A stretch of 64,000 bases of DNA from Actinomycetota bacterium (GTDB lineage Bacteria > Actinomycetota > CADDZG01 > JAHWKV01), in assembly GCA_040905365.1 (NCBI GenBank), contig JBBDRQ010000034.1, forward strand, positions 69,151 to 133,150. Reading direction: 5' to 3'. The notes below the pieces were generated by a model that worked only from the letters and a program-made list of their open reading frames with translations, searched no databases and was not told the DNA's origin. Positions 39,869 through 48,414 of this stretch are shown one piece after another. A program made the translations under genes and the position numbers. Position 1 is the stretch's first letter; every line of letters begins with the position of its first letter.

Positions 39869-40417
39869 CTAGCCCCCGGAGGAGAGTGAGGTGAGCGAGG
39901 AAAGACTTCGAGGGGGCTCGTCGACCGCTAGATAGGGCTCCCACGCCGGGTGAGTCTTTCCTACCGCCGCGATCAGAAACAGACTGTCGCTGGGAACGTG
40001 AGGTGGTCTCTTCAACTTCATCCCCACCTCATTGAGCAGCAGGTTTTCTTTGCGTGCGTTGCAGGAGCGGCAAGATGCCACCACGTTGTCCCATGTATGG
40101 GTGCCGCCCTTGGACCGGGGTTTGATGTGGTCGACATTCTCAGCAGCACAGCCGCAGTACTGGCACTGATAGTCGTCCCGGGCAAAGACCGCCCTGCGAC
40201 TAAGTGTTGCGCGGGCCCGGTAGGGCACCTTCACGAAGTAGAGCATCCGCACCACGGACGGCACCGGAAGACTCAGGCGCTCGGAATGGAAACATCCATC
40301 GTCCGCGTGCTCGATGACGGCCTTTGATTTTAGGACGAGCACGGCCGCCCGCCGTGCCGAAACGATGCAAAGCGGCTGGTAGGAAGCGTTCAAGACCAGT
40401 GCTTTGGCCAAGCCCAT
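39869..40417 (-). CDS. HNH endonuclease-domain protein
   Basis: HNH motif region CQYCGCAAENVDHIKPRSKGGTHTWDNVVASCRSCNARK. Confidence 0.75.
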   Translation of the reverse strand: MGLAKALVLNASYQPLCIVSARRAAVLVLKSKAVIEHADDGCFHSERLSLPVPSVVRMLYFVKVPYRARATLSRRAVFARDDYQCQYCGCAAENVDHIKPRSKGGTHTWDNVVASCRSCNARKENLLLNEVGMKLKRPPHVPSDSLFLIAAVGKTHPAWEPYLAVDEPPRSLSSLTSLSSGG

Positions 40418-41657: not shown

Positions 41658-41814
41658 CCGATTGATCCCTTTCAAAGCCAGCTGGATTGCGCCGGCCCGG
41701 CGACTTGTCTATAAGAAGATTATACGGCGTAGCGACCTCAACAACGCCATCAAATTGGCGACCGTCGGGCTAACCGTTCCCCGCGACGCGTGAACGAAAA
41801 CCCCGGCCAACTTC

Positions 41815-42540
41815 CTACTGAGTGACCTCTATCTCCCAGTCGCCGTTGGCCAGAACGTCGACCAGGTAGATACCTGCGGCCTTGATGTTCACGGTCACTC
41901 GAGAAGAGAAATCTCCAGACTCATTGACGATGGAACCGGCTCGGGTGCCGTCCGACCTGACCAATCCCGGGATAAATACGCCTTGACCCTCGTGACGCAA
42001 CCGGAAGTCGGCCGATCCGGCCTCAAGCTTGAAAAACTCCGTCGCAGACTGCCCTGATCCCGAGAACTCGGCCGGAGGAGCCGGAGCGTCCTCCGGAACC
42101 GACTGGTCAATTTGAGCGGTCCACTCCCCTGCTCCCGGACGCACTTCCATTACGTAATCGCCGACCGGCAGAGGCACCGCCCGAGTTCCTTCGTAATCGC
42201 CGATTGCGTTGACCACCTGGTCGATCATCTGACCATCCTGGCTAAGCGTCACAATGAAGTTTGTCGCACTGCCACCGGAGTGGGTGAAGCGCAGCAACGT
42301 CAGGCCTCCGCCGGCCTTGAAGTTCTCCTTCGTGTCGCCTTCCCCGCTAAATTCCTGGCGGTCGACGCGCTCGATGGGCGCGACGGGTGAACCGGATGCG
42401 TCTACAGGAGCGTCGCCGGCCACGTCGGTGGAATCCCCCGACCCGCTGGCCAGCACGGCAACCAGCACAATGATGCCGACGAGGATGAACAATCCTCCAC
42501 CCACCAAAACCCACCTGAACTTACTTATGAAGTCGTTCAT
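41815..42540 (-). CDS. Membrane-anchored protein with two tandem homologous extracytoplasmic domains
   Basis: N-terminal TM, then two repeats of about 75 aa each, starting FSGEGDTKENFKAGGGLTLLRFTHSGG... and FSGSGQSATEFFKLEAGSADFRLRHEGQG... No family assigned. Confidence 0.5.
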   Translation of the reverse strand: MNDFISKFRWVLVGGGLFILVGIIVLVAVLASGSGDSTDVAGDAPVDASGSPVAPIERVDRQEFSGEGDTKENFKAGGGLTLLRFTHSGGSATNFIVTLSQDGQMIDQVVNAIGDYEGTRAVPLPVGDYVMEVRPGAGEWTAQIDQSVPEDAPAPPAEFSGSGQSATEFFKLEAGSADFRLRHEGQGVFIPGLVRSDGTRAGSIVNESGDFSSRVTVNIKAAGIYLVDVLANGDWEIEVTQ

Positions 42541-42898: not shown

Positions 42899-43603
42899 TC
42901 AGTCAAGCTGGCCCAACGCGGCGGTCAACTTCCGCGCCTCTCCCGCCGGGTCGTCGCTCTGGGTCAGGGCCCGCACCACCGACACCCGCCCGGCGCCTGC
43001 ATCCAGCACCGAGCGTACGTTCGAGGCATTGATACCTCCGATGGCAAAGACCGGCTTGGTGGCCCGCTTAGCAGCAGCCCGAACCAGGTCCAGGCCCACG
43101 GCCGGCCGCCCGGGTTTGGTGGGCGTGGCAAACACCGGACCAATCGCGCAGTAGTCGGCCGTTGAGGCGGTCGCCGACTCCAACTGATCGACCGAGTGGG
43201 TCGATACCCCGACAATCAGCTCGGGCCCCACCTGACGGCGGGCCTCGTCGAGGGGCAGGTCTTGTTGCCCCAGATGTACGCCGTCGGCTCCTGCCGCGAT
43301 CGCTACATCTACTCGGTCGTTCACAATGAACAGGGCCCCGGCGGCGGCCGTACGCCTCCTCACCACCTCGGCGTACCTCAACAAAGGCCCTGCCTCCATC
43401 TGCTTCTCCCTCAGCTGCACCATCCCGACCCCTGCGTCCAAAACCTCTGCCAGAAAGCGGTCCAAGTCACCCGCCGCAGACCGCGCGTCGGTGACCAGGT
43501 AGAGGCGGCACTCTCCCAATTGCGCATTCGGCGGATCAGCGCGCGCTGCGTTGCGAATCCCGTCCTCCTCCTCTTTGTCCTTTTTCTCCTTGGGTCGGGG
43601 CAC
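42899..43603 (-). CDS. thiE: Thiamine-phosphate synthase
   Basis: TMP-TENI fold motifs (LYLVTD, VQLREK, VNDRVDVA, GADGVHLGQQD, GVSTHS, DYCAIGPVFATPTKPG, AIGGI). The N-terminal 25 codons are K/E-rich low complexity and may not be translated; an internal TTG is possible. Confidence 0.85.
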   Translation of the reverse strand: MPRPKEKKDKEEEDGIRNAARADPPNAQLGECRLYLVTDARSAAGDLDRFLAEVLDAGVGMVQLREKQMEAGPLLRYAEVVRRRTAAAGALFIVNDRVDVAIAAGADGVHLGQQDLPLDEARRQVGPELIVGVSTHSVDQLESATASTADYCAIGPVFATPTKPGRPAVGLDLVRAAAKRATKPVFAIGGINASNVRSVLDAGAGRVSVVRALTQSDDPAGEARKLTAALGQLD

Positions 43604-43747
43604 AAACCTCTTAAGCGACGTGACAAGTTTGTCACGGCACAGTAATTTTCTCGTATCGACTCTCGATCGCGACGAAGGCCCAGCCGGACCAGGATCAATC
43701 CGGCGCGCGAGCCGAGGGCTTAATCACCGACTCGAGGGGGTGAATAA

Positions 43748-44221
43748 TTGTTCGAAGACCGACAAGTGGTAGTACTCGGCGAACGCGACGGCGTCTCCGG
43801 GGGTGCCATATCGGCCTGCGTGGAGGCCATCGGCGGGTCCCACATCGCTTTCGCCGCCACGGAATGCTTTGTCTGAACGGCCTCAGGAGCCATGGATCTG
43901 CAACACCAGGAGGTAATCCTGGCGCTCTCCAATGAACACGGCCCGGAGAAGCTGCTCATCATCTTGGGTTCGCCCGACGCTGAGAGTGCGCAAGTCTCCG
44001 CCGAAACCGTAGTTCTGGGAGATCCGACTTACGCAGGTGCTTTGGCCGAGGTCCAGTTGGGCCTCGACGTTTACCACATACTAGAAGATGAGATTCGCAG
44101 CCTAGTCCCCGAGGACGTCTTCGAGGAGCAGGTGGGGCTCATGGCCGACGTGCTCGATACCGACGACATCACCGCCACCCTGCGCGACATAAGGTCGCAA
44201 TCGCCGGCACCGGAGTGTTAG
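43748..44221 (+). CDS. grdA: Glycine/sarcosine/betaine reductase complex selenoprotein A homolog with in-frame UGA selenocysteine codon at 43874..43876
   Basis: TTG start at 43748 preceded by GAGGGGGUGA (43733-43742) and by an in-frame TAA at 43745. The translation reads through TGA as Sec: (M)FEDRQVVVLGERDGVSGGAISACVEAIGGSHIAFAATECFV-U-TASGAMDLQHQEVILALSNEHGPEKLLIILGSPDAESAQVSAETVVLGDPTYAGALAEVQLGLDVYHILEDEIRSLVPEDVFEEQVGLMADVLDTDD... This matches the GrdA pattern VIIIGDRDGIPGPAIAEC...STECFVUTAAGAMDLENQ...VVLLGAAEAESAGLAAETVT.GDPTFAGPLAGVQLGL along the whole 157 codons (from memory of the family, not a database hit). The ORF track shows only 43892..44221. Confidence 0.8.
43886..43929 (+). 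ncRNA. Candidate bacterial SECIS hairpin within grdA, 10 nt downstream of the UGA
   Basis: GGAG (43886-89) pairs with CUCC (43926-29), enclosing an upper stem CCAGGA (43906-11) / UCCUGG (43917-22) with apical loop GGUAA (contains G and U). The geometry is comparable to SelB-binding SECIS elements. Structure inferred by eye only. Confidence 0.4.
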
Positions 44222-44587
44222 TACTAGGCACATCGGGCCGCAACCCGGGTCCGTTGTGCGCCACCCTCGGATGAGGGACAACTTCTACGCGCCCGTTCCC
44301 GCGGGTACCTCTCCCGCGGGTACCTCGACATTCTGCAACATTCGACACATGCCACAAGCACAAAACGTCAATTGCTACTTGACATAGCACCACTTTTCGT
44401 GAATGATTTGCACACTCAGTAGCCGGAACCTTTTTTAACAGGAGATCCAACAGCAAGCTGTCCGGGCCCGTAGAATTAGCCCAATTTAATAAGCAGAGCT
44501 TTGTTGCGTTACTCACTGGATTAGTCGGTAGTAATTCAATAGCATGAGCCACGCATTTGTCATGCGCCGAAAGAGGGCTTTTAACGC

Positions 44588-44617
44588 TTAGATACTTAGA
44601 TAGATTTAGATAGATAC
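44588..44617 (+). promoter_or_regulatory. Three TTAGATA direct repeats (8/10-nt phasing) in the AT-rich leader of the sortase-substrate gene
   Basis: cTTAGATAcTTAGATAgatTTAGATAgatacag at 44588-44617. A strong AGAGGAG Shine-Dalgarno (44631-37) follows, 9 nt before ATG 44647. A TTGACA hexamer at 44377-82 with AATGAT 17 nt downstream is a possible sigma70-type promoter. The surrounding 44330-44640 is markedly AT-richer than the window average. Confidence 0.45.
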
Positions 44618-44646
44618 AGACGCACAAAAAAGAGGAGTAAATCTCA

Positions 44647-46434
44647 ATGTCGGGCACACAAAGGAAGAAAAAGGGGGTTACCAGGGTAACTGCGCTGCTC
44701 GCGCTGGTTGCCATGGGCCTAGCCCTCGCTCCCCAGGCAGCGCTGGGTCAAGTATCCTTCAGCGATGCAGATTTTTCCGGTTACGCGACCGGTACCTACC
44801 TTCACGCCGACGCACTGACGCTAGGCTCATCCCCCACCGTCAAGGCCGACCTCGGCTGGTCCGGCGCGTCCGTCGCTTCCAAAGGGCTCGATACCGCGGT
44901 GAGCGATGAGCTCGGCCGGGTCGTCCAACCTTCCGTACCCGGCAAGAACAGCTACGGCGCAGGGTTTGGTCTGGACGTCAGTCTGCTCGGCAGCGACATC
45001 CTCCAGCAGCAGGCCGCAGCTGCAGCCGCCCCTCCCTCCACGGAGTTGATCAAGAAGACCCTGGTAGGACCCATTGATGTACCCGGCGTGCTCTCGGCAG
45101 GCGTTGTAGAAGGCAGGGCTCAGGCAACCTACGACCCGAACAACTGCATCCTCGGTAAGGACCTCAGCTACGGCCAGGGCAACGTGGCCGACGCCTCGCT
45201 TCTGACCGGCGACGTGCTCGGTGGCGTCGGAGACACTCTTTCCGCTCTGTTGGGCACCGACCCGAGCAGCCAGGACCCCGGAGCAGTCCGCTCCTCCTCG
45301 CGCACCCGGTTGGTTCCTCAGACCGATGAGGGTGGCAACATTGTCGGCCCGAACTTGGGTCTTCTGAGCGAAACCCGTCAGACGCTTGCTCCAGTCGTTC
45401 TGTTCCAGGGCGTGCCCGGGGCAGAGCTCACCATTGAGCTGCTGGGTGAATGGGTTATCCAGGCGGTTGCCACCGGTATTCCGGGACAGTCGTACGTCAG
45501 CTACCAGCCGGGCACCGCCAACGGCGAAACACCGGTGCTCAAGGTAACCAACACGCTTCCGCTTCCGGACGCCGGTTCCGAGTTGGTAGAGGGCCTCACG
45601 GTCACGCTCGACCAGCTACTGGGCATCGTTCCGCTCGACGACCTGCTCCAGGGCGACCTGCTGGGCCTCGGCCTGGTGGAGTTGGTGCTCGACCCCGACC
45701 CCACCGTGACGGAGTCCGCCGACGGCACTCACGCCAAGGGCGTAGTTGATGTCGTGCGGGTCCGCTTGCTCCCCGAGGGCGAGGGACTGCTGGGCGACCT
45801 GCTGGGCACCACGCTGGGCGGCCTTGAGCTTGCCGACGTGCGTGTCGGACACATGGAAGTCGAGTCCAGGGTCCCGGTCGGCGGCATCACCTGCGCAGGT
45901 GCGGACGTCAAGAAGGCCGCCAACCCGGAGATCGTCAATGCGGGACAGAGCTTCGTCTACTCCATCAACACGACGAACCCGTTCGACTGCGAACTGACCA
46001 GCAACTCTCTGGTCGACACCATGACCGTGCCCGACAACATCGGGTTCACGATCGGCAGCCAGGATCCGCCGGCCAGTTCCACGACGGCCAACTCGGTTAC
46101 CTATAACGACATAGGGCCTATAGCGCCCAAGGAGTCGAAGTCCGTCTCCTTCCAAGTCGCCGTAGCCGATAACGCCGCTAACGGGAACTTTGTGAACCGG
46201 GCCGAGGTGGTGTCCAACTGTGCCTTGGAGACGGCGCAGGGAGGCACGGCCAACGTCCAGCTCACGGCGTTCGACGAAATCGACAAACCGCGGGTGCAGG
46301 CGCAGGAAGCGCCACCGTTGCCAAAGACGGGCGGAACCACCGCCTTCTGGGCAACCATGGCGGTGATCCTCGGGGGCATATCCGTGGCCTCGGCGTTCGG
46401 CTACCGCAAGCTGGGGGGCATCTCCCAGAGGTAA
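44647..46434 (+). CDS. Sortase-anchored surface protein (signal peptide, DUF11-like repeat domain, LPKTG sorting signal)
   Basis: N-terminal signal peptide (KKKGVTRVTALLALVAMGLALAPQAALGQ). The C-terminus has LPKTGG followed by a hydrophobic stretch and RK tail (cell-wall sorting signal). The 'conserved repeat' style domain begins near NAGQSFVYSINTTNP. Confidence 0.85.
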   Translation: MSGTQRKKKGVTRVTALLALVAMGLALAPQAALGQVSFSDADFSGYATGTYLHADALTLGSSPTVKADLGWSGASVASKGLDTAVSDELGRVVQPSVPGKNSYGAGFGLDVSLLGSDILQQQAAAAAAPPSTELIKKTLVGPIDVPGVLSAGVVEGRAQATYDPNNCILGKDLSYGQGNVADASLLTGDVLGGVGDTLSALLGTDPSSQDPGAVRSSSRTRLVPQTDEGGNIVGPNLGLLSETRQTLAPVVLFQGVPGAELTIELLGEWVIQAVATGIPGQSYVSYQPGTANGETPVLKVTNTLPLPDAGSELVEGLTVTLDQLLGIVPLDDLLQGDLLGLGLVELVLDPDPTVTESADGTHAKGVVDVVRVRLLPEGEGLLGDLLGTTLGGLELADVRVGHMEVESRVPVGGITCAGADVKKAANPEIVNAGQSFVYSINTTNPFDCELTSNSLVDTMTVPDNIGFTIGSQDPPASSTTANSVTYNDIGPIAPKESKSVSFQVAVADNAANGNFVNRAEVVSNCALETAQGGTANVQLTAFDEIDKPRVQAQEAPPLPKTGGTTAFWATMAVILGGISVASAFGYRKLGGISQR

Positions 46435-46450
46435 CGGTTAACGACAAAAA

Positions 46451-46480
46451 GGGGGCTCGGCTCTTGCGGGAGCCGAGCCC
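46451..46480 (+). terminator. Stable hairpin downstream of the surface-protein gene
   Basis: GGGGCUCGGCUC - uugcgg - GAGCCGAGCCC, an 11-bp perfect stem preceded by an A-run. No U-tract, which is common for high-GC terminators. Confidence 0.5.
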
Positions 46481-46594
46481 TTCGTACCTCAGCAGCCTCG
46501 AGGAGGGCTCGCCGTGGTTAAAGAGCCACCGTTAGAGACGAGTCTTAAATATGATGGTTGGAATCGGCCGGGGGGCTAATCCAGGAGTAAAGAC

Positions 46595-47221
46595 GTGGAG
46601 CTAAGTCAGCAGGGACGGCGCAAATTGGCGGTCGTTTTAGCCGGTATGGCCGCGATCACGGCGCTGGGATCCGCGGGTTTTTTCATGTACCCCCTGTACA
46701 CCGACTGGCAGGCTAACCGGACCCAAAGCCAGTTGCGGGATCAGTTCCAGACGGCCAGCCTGAAGGCGGACTACGCGGCCGGCGAGGTGCAAGACGCCTC
46801 CCCCCTCACGCGCATCATCATCCCGGCGATGGGCACGGACACGATCGTGGTGGAGGGCACCTCCTCCAAAGCGCTCAACACCGGCGCCGGCCACTACCCG
46901 AACACGCCCCTGCCCGGAGAGCCTGGTAACGTGGCGATTGCCGGGCACCGCACCACCTACGGCAAGCCGTTCTCTAACTTGGAGGTGCTGAAACCGGGAG
47001 ACAAGATCACGCTGATCACGCCTTTTGCCGAGCACACCTATGAAGTTGTAGACCCTTTCGACGGCCACGCCAATCCATGGGTAACTTCCGCCAGCGACTG
47101 GTCGGCCATCAACCCGACGCCCGAAGCGACGTTGACGCTGACCACATGCCACCCTAAAGGGTCCGACCGGCAACGCCTGATTGCCCGCGCCGTCCTGCTT
47201 GAGTCCAAGGACATCGCATGA
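46595..47221 (+). CDS. Class E sortase
   Basis: GTG start with AGGAG Shine-Dalgarno, N-terminal TM, catalytic His (AGHRTTYG), TLTTCHP cysteine motif and conserved Arg, typical of actinobacterial class E sortases. Confidence 0.88.
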   Translation: MELSQQGRRKLAVVLAGMAAITALGSAGFFMYPLYTDWQANRTQSQLRDQFQTASLKADYAAGEVQDASPLTRIIIPAMGTDTIVVEGTSSKALNTGAGHYPNTPLPGEPGNVAIAGHRTTYGKPFSNLEVLKPGDKITLITPFAEHTYEVVDPFDGHANPWVTSASDWSAINPTPEATLTLTTCHPKGSDRQRLIARAVLLESKDIA

Positions 47222-48414
47222 GACGCCTGCTGGCGAGCTGGATGGCAGGACTTTTGCTCGTGGCAATCGCTGCCGCGCCTGCGGGCGCTGCCACCGGCGG
47301 AGGCGATGGCGAGATCAAGTTCGTCACCCCACCCACGCCCGCCGCGGGCAAGCCAACGGCCGGCACACAAACCATCCAGGCGGAAGTTGAAATGTCCGGA
47401 GGGCTTCTGAGCTCCCCCGACTACGAAAGCTTCACCGTTACCGTCAAGCCGCGCAGCGGCGATGGCAAGTCCGCCTCGATCGCCAACACGACCGGAAACA
47501 ACCAGAGCTTCAAGGGCTCCTGGAACACAAAGGGTCAAAGTCCCTACAACGGCGGCTACGACATCGAAGCCACCGCGGTTGTGGATACCGGACTACTGTC
47601 GGGTCCCAAGACCTTCAGAGCTTCGGTAGCCAACGTACTGCTCAACAACCCTCCAGCCGCCCCCACCGGCGTCTCGGTCTCTCTACAGGGTGAAACCCCC
47701 ATGGTGACCTGGAAGGCCAACAGCGAGCCCGACCTGACCGGATACCGGGTGCTCAGGGCCGTAGCCAGCGGATCGTTCGAGCAGGTCGGATCCGTAAAGA
47801 CCAACAAGTTCACCGACTCCGAAGCGCCGGCCGGGCTGGCACTTCGGTATCAGGTGGTAGCCGTGCGCAGTAGCCCGGTCAGCGACTCTGGGATAACCGC
47901 TAAGAGCTCCGCCTCCAAGCCGGTGACCATACCGGCGCCCGCGGCTGCGGAGGGTCAGGGAGACGGCGAAGCCGAAGGCGCCCCCGCCGGCGAGGTGCCC
48001 GAGGGGGTCTTCGTCCCCGAAACCACCACCGCGGAGCCGGAGCCCGAGCCGGAGCCCGCTCCCCCGCCGGCCCAAAACTCCGGACCGCTGGCCCCGATCA
48101 TCAGGGACGAACCTCTGGCCCGAACCAACGTGGACTTCGACGACCAGCTGCCCTTCGATGCCGAACTACCCGAGCGCTTCAGCACATCGTCGGACTCCCC
48201 CTCCATCAACGCAGCCCAAAGCGCGGCCACCGATAGCGGCGACGCAACGCTCGCAAACCCGGTGAAGTTCATCGCGACTGGACTCTTCCTGCTCGTTTTC
48301 TCCATCATCCTGGCCCGGACCTCGCGCCGGCTGTTCAAGGGCAAGCCGGGCGCCGACGGCTCCAAACCGCCGAAGGTTTCATACCCGGCGTTTCGAATCA
48401 GCCGCAGCCCATAA
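47218..48414 (+). CDS. Secreted fibronectin-type-III-domain protein with C-terminal membrane anchor
   Basis: ATGA overlap with the sortase stop. Signal peptide, FN3-like segment (PTGVSVSLQGETPMVTWKANSEPDLTGYRVLRA...YQVVAVRS), acidic/Pro-rich linker, then a C-terminal TM plus basic tail. No canonical LPXTG/LAXTG motif. Confidence 0.7.
   Translation: MRRLLASWMAGLLLVAIAAAPAGAATGGGDGEIKFVTPPTPAAGKPTAGTQTIQAEVEMSGGLLSSPDYESFTVTVKPRSGDGKSASIANTTGNNQSFKGSWNTKGQSPYNGGYDIEATAVVDTGLLSGPKTFRASVANVLLNNPPAAPTGVSVSLQGETPMVTWKANSEPDLTGYRVLRAVASGSFEQVGSVKTNKFTDSEAPAGLALRYQVVAVRSSPVSDSGITAKSSASKPVTIPAPAAAEGQGDGEAEGAPAGEVPEGVFVPETTTAEPEPEPEPAPPPAQNSGPLAPIIRDEPLARTNVDFDDQLPFDAELPERFSTSSDSPSINAAQSAATDSGDATLANPVKFIATGLFLLVFSIILARTSRRLFKGKPGADGSKPPKVSYPAFRISRSP

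Follow-up and report, generated by a model that had tools for sequence, protein, structure and literature searches.

Is the 109-aa ORF at 43892..44221, which is all that the ORF listing of the window (the whole 64,000-nucleotide stretch of DNA that was analysed) reports at this place, a gene in its own right, or is it the larger remnant of a selenoprotein gene cut at its selenocysteine (Sec) codon? The first-pass annotation had claimed the latter, i.e., a hidden grdA read through an in-frame UGA. GrdA entered the textbooks as a selenoprotein in the 1970s-1990s, with characterised examples from Clostridium sticklandii, C. litorale, and Eubacterium acidaminophilum. Among bacterial selenoprotein families it ranks fourth (PMC5029168).

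The grdA frame and its family

43748..44221, plus strand: complete grdA, glycine/sarcosine/betaine reductase selenoprotein A (open frame, full-length Pfam and NCBIfam matches, dN/dS)
43734..43743, plus strand: Shine-Dalgarno-like sequence GAGGGGGTGA, 4 nt before the TTG
43748..43750, plus strand: start codon TTG, at a conserved position 42 codons ahead of the UGA
43865..43876, plus strand: C-F-V-U active-site motif (TGC TTT GTC TGA), with the UGA at 43874-43876 as predicted Sec codon; found in 80 of 80 loci
43892..43894, plus strand: internal ATG taken as the start by ORF callers; Met of the GAMD motif

Translated from 43748 to 44221, the DNA gave one frame, LFEDRQVVVLGERDG...ATECFV*TASGAMD...APEC*, with a single internal stop (TGA, 43874-43876). 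The gene comprises 157 codons, including the one UGA, between its TTG start and a TAG stop at 44219-44221, and neither frameshifts nor other stops were found in it. In the profile searches, for which the 157-residue product was used with Cys put in for the UGA stop, the Pfam family GRDA (PF04723) aligned residues 2-149 with positions 1-147 of the 147 in the profile (E=8.2e-56; 188.3 bits, cut-off 22), and the NCBIfam equivalog NF040748 scored 191 bits (cut-off 130), covering 2-149 of 151. As these profile matches are full-length, the similarity spans the TGA and is not confined to the part downstream of Met-43892, and the identity first read from the letters alone, a full-length GrdA truncated in the ORF listing, is upheld, as are all the coordinates and motifs given with it. 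The product resembles the classical GrdA in its length class (about 150-158 aa), in its full-length profile match, and in its motifs (GxRDG at the N-terminus, ECFV-U-TA(A/S)GAMD, GDPTYAG, and EEQ.G.M), and differs from it in the TTG start codon; its identity to Firmicutes-type sequences is about 50%. A search by sequence gave no PDB relative of the product. GrdA is a known selenoprotein family, 43748-44221 is a real selenoprotein gene which simple ORF callers split in two, and restoring grdA here corrects a faulty gene call.

A scan of one genome per species yielded 80 related loci, nearly all from uncultured Actinomycetota (Solirubrobacterales, Thermoleophilaceae, Gaiellaceae, and unclassified) together with two Candidatus Dormibacteria. 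The aligned codon was TGA in all 80, within an invariant ECFV-TGA-TA(S/A)GAMD, which places the UGA at the Sec site of the C-x-x-U motif just as had been proposed. For the window and its eight closest relatives, whose synonymous sites are near saturation, the median dN/dS was 0.06 for the stretch before the TGA (41 codons) and 0.11 for that after it (100 codons), and GC content by codon position is alike on both sides (0.69/0.48/0.74 and 0.71/0.38/0.72). The five residues that lead from the TGA to the ATG at 43892 (T-A-S/A-G-A) are conserved as amino acids, and GAMD is found without variation across the 80 loci as well as in Firmicutes-type homologues. Judged from these alignments, the ATG at 43892 encodes the family-conserved Met of GAMD and is not an initiator.

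The proposed start fared equally well. An in-frame TAA (43745-43747) immediately precedes the TTG, and in every member of the clade in which grdA stands alone (loci L001-L008 with the window; see below) the distance from start to TGA is exactly 42 codons, with GGAGGTGA always ahead of the start. The start codon itself is TTG in the window, GTG in L001, L003, L004, L006, L007, and L008, and ATG in L002 and L005. Across the eight relatives, GGAGGTGA with the start codon at codon -42 is nearly the sole conserved upstream sequence; ungapped nucleotide identity between relatives is 67-72% in the N-terminal coding part versus 30-33% in the 123 nt 5' of the start. Further upstream, the intergenic region between thiE and grdA holds a perfect palindrome, GTGACAA-gt-TTGTCAC (43620-43635), which overlaps a possible promoter (43620-43648; GTGACA as -35 element and, across a spacer of 17 nt, TAATTT as -10 element at 43643-43648). 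An operator role for the palindrome is possible; the relatives do not share it in their upstream regions. A consensus scan around grdA gave no intrinsic terminator, and its sole promoter-like site (44379) lies downstream of the gene. Neither a riboswitch nor another known element was matched in Rfam, at the gathering threshold for the whole window or at E<=1 for 43400-44800.

Genomic context of a solitary grdA

42899..43603, minus strand: thiE (thiamine-phosphate synthase; PF02581, E=1e-61), divergent neighbour of grdA
44647-48414: surface-protein module (595-aa protein, sortase, and 398-aa protein)
46595-47221: sortase, part of the surface-protein module

The window carries a dcw cluster on the minus strand (mraW, ftsI, murE, murF, mraY, ftsW, murG, murC, murB, ftsQ, and ftsZ, from 38990 down to 25001). 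To the left of grdA lies thiE, which is the conserved left flank of the solitary gene (synteny in L001-L008, L081, and L082) and is not part of the grd system. Four genes follow on the 3' side, encoding a 595-aa LPKTG protein, a sortase, a 398-aa protein, and moaA. The 595-aa protein has no Pfam match and ends in LPKTG, a transmembrane segment, and a basic tail, while the 398-aa protein matched nothing in Pfam or NCBIfam; the trio of 595-aa protein, sortase, and 398-aa protein is also found 3' of grdA in L001, L006-L008, L081, and L082. The first-pass annotation had called a selenoprotein unexpected in such an actinobacterial dcw/sortase neighbourhood. The neighbourhood is real, but the surprise was overstated: GrdA with a conserved TGA is frequent among soil Actinomycetota that have not been cultured, and GrdA is present in hundreds of Actinomycetota MAGs. 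The 80 loci include Solirubrobacterales, Thermoleophilaceae, Gaiellaceae, and others, and a query with the partner GrdC matched over 5,500 proteins at E<=1e-30, those with a named source coming from Actinomycetota or Dormibacteria MAGs.

Several smaller variations were noticed around the gene. The 425-bp spacer 3' of grdA contains an exact tandem duplication of the 15-mer TCCCGCGGGTACCTC (44297-44326), each copy of which contains the palindrome CCCGCGGG. In some close relatives, the gap between grdA and the surface-protein genes has an inserted block with a STAS-GAF-ANTAR regulator and, in longer contigs, also a HATPase-like protein, CheB, and a CheR-PAS protein (L003 3188-4231; L005 6901-7947; L006 10558-14894; L081 10881-14467; L082 5514-9830); the window, L001, L004, L007, and L008 are without the regulator block. 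A DinB-type (IMS) polymerase gene lies between a DUF3040/SCO2097-like gene and the gene of a 240-aa unknown protein in L001-L008, L081, and L082, and is missing from the window at about 41675-41815. At 39869-40417 (minus strand), the window encodes a 182-aa protein with an HNH nuclease motif which is conserved in relatives (cluster c14); its best NCBIfam match is the HNH region of IscB, at 52 bits and far under the cut-off.

By clustering the predicted proteins of all loci, the 80 loci were sorted into 67 with grdA at the end of an operon, eight with a solitary grdA of the thiE type, and five in which truncation hides the arrangement. The eight solitary ones coincide exactly with the nearest relatives of the window (L001-L008, 73-81% identity), and two metagenome contigs (L081 and L082) have the same thiE-grdA synteny. 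In all 11 members of this clade (window, L001-L008, L081, and L082), grdA stands alone wherever flanks were available (up to 10 kb on each side). Neighbour joining of GrdA sequences placed the solitary copies in one monophyletic clade (46 of 50 bootstraps), with the Dormibacteria operon copies L011 and L017 as its sister group. Two of the solitary loci, L002 and L003, differ in sequence and come from one MAG (SMAG_U6709), probably because strains are mixed in the bin and not through a real duplication.

The operons of the relatives are ordered grdE-grdB-grdC-trx-grdA and encode a GrdE/GrdG-like protein (PF09338), selenoprotein B (TIGR01918, 309 bits), GrdC beta (NF040746, 557 bits, cut-off 450), and a thioredoxin. 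Genes for Sec synthesis and insertion were found within 10 kb in part of the 67 operon loci, selD (TIGR00476, 391 bits) in 18 and selB (TIGR00475, 315 bits) in 11. When compared with the operon copies of soil Actinomycetota and Dormibacteria (L009-L080, L084-L093), the window GrdA is 60-70% identical and shares the same TGA and the same architecture of Shine-Dalgarno sequence and start. The operon copies, however, have grdA as last or second-last gene, often with selD or selB within 10 kb, and the window copy is without these over the 64 kb. In the same operons, grdB is split at an in-frame TGA of its own (about 345 aa and about 75 aa), and no obvious GrdD (component C alpha) was seen among the conserved neighbour clusters. 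Classical grd genes form grdX-trxB-trxA-grdE-grdA-grdB-grdC-grdD or grdAB clusters, whereas the grdA of the window lies outside any grd operon, and its host is a high-GC (about 63%) uncultured actinobacterium, whereas the classical hosts are anaerobic amino-acid fermenters. The pair grdA-grdB is itself cited as a typical selenoprotein operon (PMC13188914).

In tblastn searches, actinobacterial GrdC, GrdE/B, operon-type thioredoxin, SelD, and SelB had no match in the 64-kb window, ARAGORN found no tRNA of any kind in it, and no operon genes lie within 20 kb to the right or 43 kb to the left of grdA. Likewise, no grd partner was found within 10 kb of grdA in L001-L008, L081, and L082. From the closest GrdC matches, seven contexts were looked up; each had its own grdA adjacent, and no grd operon without grdA was seen among them. 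This sampling of GrdC contigs is small and was not targeted to the clade of the window; it neither supports nor refutes a separate partner operon. The context is a modest twist, in that a conserved solitary grdA in one uncultured actinobacterial clade is mildly new.

What such a gene does was approached through its conservation. Of 82 near-invariant columns in the other, mostly operon-linked actinobacterial GrdA, 68 are kept in the clade of the window, and the 14 that differ are mostly conservative (e.g., A to S, E to Q, and M to I). The kept columns and the strong purifying selection argue for an unchanged function, and on this alignment the window GrdA may be expected to do what GrdA always does, acting as the small carrier/redox subunit of a glycine/sarcosine/betaine reductase system. 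In that system, protein B (GrdB/GrdE), which is specific for the substrate, passes a carboxymethyl group to the Sec of C-x-x-U, the vicinal Cys then forms a thioester and an Se-S bond, protein C (GrdC/GrdD) frees acetyl phosphate, and thioredoxin re-reduces GrdA (PMC13188914). In this lineage, grdA, which sits alone between thiE and the sortase/surface-protein cluster, would have become detached from the other operon genes, and the most economical reading is that the partners, as well as selABCD, would be encoded elsewhere in the genome.

The alternative is that there are no partners, i.e., that the clade lost or never had GrdB/E and GrdC/D and that the Sec-GrdA is a free-standing, thioredoxin-dependent redox or carrier protein of another pathway. 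The solitary arrangement, conserved and monophyletic across 11 loci with flanks of up to 10 kb, speaks for it, as do the absence of a grd partner (GrdB, GrdC, or GrdE) from the 64-kb window, the lack of any partner operon without grdA among the seven sampled GrdC contigs, and eight clade-specific substitutions (e.g., A17S, P19G, and E82Q). We nevertheless consider it unlikely. The columns invariant in the family are largely intact with mostly conservative changes, the purifying selection matches that of any enzyme subunit, unlinked genes are common and the view here is 64 kb wide, the GrdC contigs sampled are few and not aimed at this clade, and GrdA and GrdB co-occur almost one to one in surveyed genomes (142 versus 146 organisms; PMC5029168). 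The stronger form, in which a soil Actinomycetota clade has a solitary Sec-GrdA with no GrdB or GrdC genome-wide and a second, reductase-independent job (e.g., as a thioredoxin-linked selenium/redox carrier), is a long shot.

Proposed decoding of the in-frame UGA

43906..43922, plus strand: candidate SECIS hairpin CCAGGA-GGUAA-UCCUGG (inferred), whose 6-bp stem carries an apical loop of 5 nt that contains G

Of the 47 genes predicted in the window, 19 end in TGA, more than in any other stop codon. As TGA ends genes normally in this genome, site-specific recoding is needed at 43874. Translation would start at TTG 43748 and end at TAG 44219, with the UGA at 43874 read as selenocysteine by SelB and Sec-tRNA(Sec), and an mRNA hairpin a few codons downstream of the UGA probably assists. 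In bacteria, the SECIS is a stem-loop immediately 3' of the UGA whose apical loop is small and contains G (PMC1088965), and the best candidate here is the hairpin at 43906-43922, whose apical loop starts 35 nt after the UGA. Its six pairs are all intact in six of nine clade members and broken in two to three of the nine; one C-G to U-A change was seen, with an adjoining mismatch. The fold of the region is as stable as that of shuffled sequence (z about 0), and an alignment of 28 sequences gave no hairpin common to the wider GrdA family and no covariation. A crude filter for in-frame TGA and GC3, run for other selenoprotein genes in the window, returned just gene junctions and antisense frames; it missed grdA too.

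Could the UGA be decoded as something other than Sec? It might be read as Cys, through SelB and a tRNA(Cys) that resembles tRNA(Sec), or passed by low-level near-cognate readthrough, so that the product would be a Cys or other variant of GrdA. A genuine Cys-form GrdA exists in the database (P0008, ...PECFVCTAAGAMD), which means that Cys at the Sec site can be tolerated; further, no Sec machinery (tRNA, SelB, or SelD) was seen within the 64-kb window and the SECIS search gave nothing convincing. This reading is nonetheless very improbable: the site is TGC or TGT in none of the 80 loci despite saturated synonymous divergence, which is the pattern expected if Sec itself is selected, and selD and selB adjoin the grd operons in related lineages. 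Hardly credible at all is a dead gene, with the TGA a true stop in a decaying pseudogene or between two unrelated small ORFs, for although ORF callers do call two pieces and the consensus scan gave no terminator or strong promoter, the frame is free of frameshifts and further stops, the start and Shine-Dalgarno sequence are conserved, the family match crosses the TGA as one chain, and the identical TGA in 80 of 80 loci together with a dN/dS well under 1 on both sides effectively refutes both versions.

With these alternatives weighed, we hold with good confidence that 43748-44221 on the plus strand is a functional GrdA in which the UGA encodes Sec and whose partners and selABCD lie elsewhere in the genome. 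Of this, the gene, its frame, the conservation of the UGA, the purifying selection, and the family are shown directly, while Sec insertion, the SECIS element, and the existence of partner genes are inferred.

Annotation and biological meaning

A protein-database search with GrdA returned 1,270 relatives. The close ones (64-92% identity) are nearly all fragments of 104-115 aa which start at the Met of GAMD and are hence truncated in the same way as the ORF of the window. Gene calls in public assemblies give fragments of 41-47 aa followed by 'GRDA' fragments of 105-111 aa, and a separate 42-aa GRDA fragment is called from the start position elsewhere. The contention that standard callers will always miss the gene is overstated. 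Prodigal-type calls do split it, but NCBI-annotated MAG records give one product (154-163 aa at grdA, and 439-444 aa at the grdB position), and the dedicated equivalog model in NCBIfam, NF040748, contradicts the 'always'. Full-length-looking GrdA entries were also seen (among P0002, P0008, P0036, P0042, and P0064), in which the TGA is read as Trp (ECFVWTA); presumably genetic code 4 was used to call them. A genuine Cys occupies the Sec site of P0008 (PECFVCTA); a report of 2006 described GrdA as being without Cys homologues (PMC1794560).

For the annotation of this genome, the 109-aa ORF should give way to a selenoprotein gene of 157 codons, annotated with a translation exception at 43874-43876; for this actinobacterial GrdA clade, the databases mostly store fragments of 105-110 aa. 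Should the solitary clade really be without the partners, a 50-year-old selenoprotein would have an unknown function in it; if they are present elsewhere, the solitary gene would be a simple case of operon fragmentation. Glycine, sarcosine, and betaine reduction is classically tied to anaerobic fermenters. In essence, grdA probably marks this organism as a Sec user able to reduce glycine, sarcosine, or betaine, and the grd trait is widespread in soil Actinomycetota MAGs, beyond the classical anaerobic fermenters.
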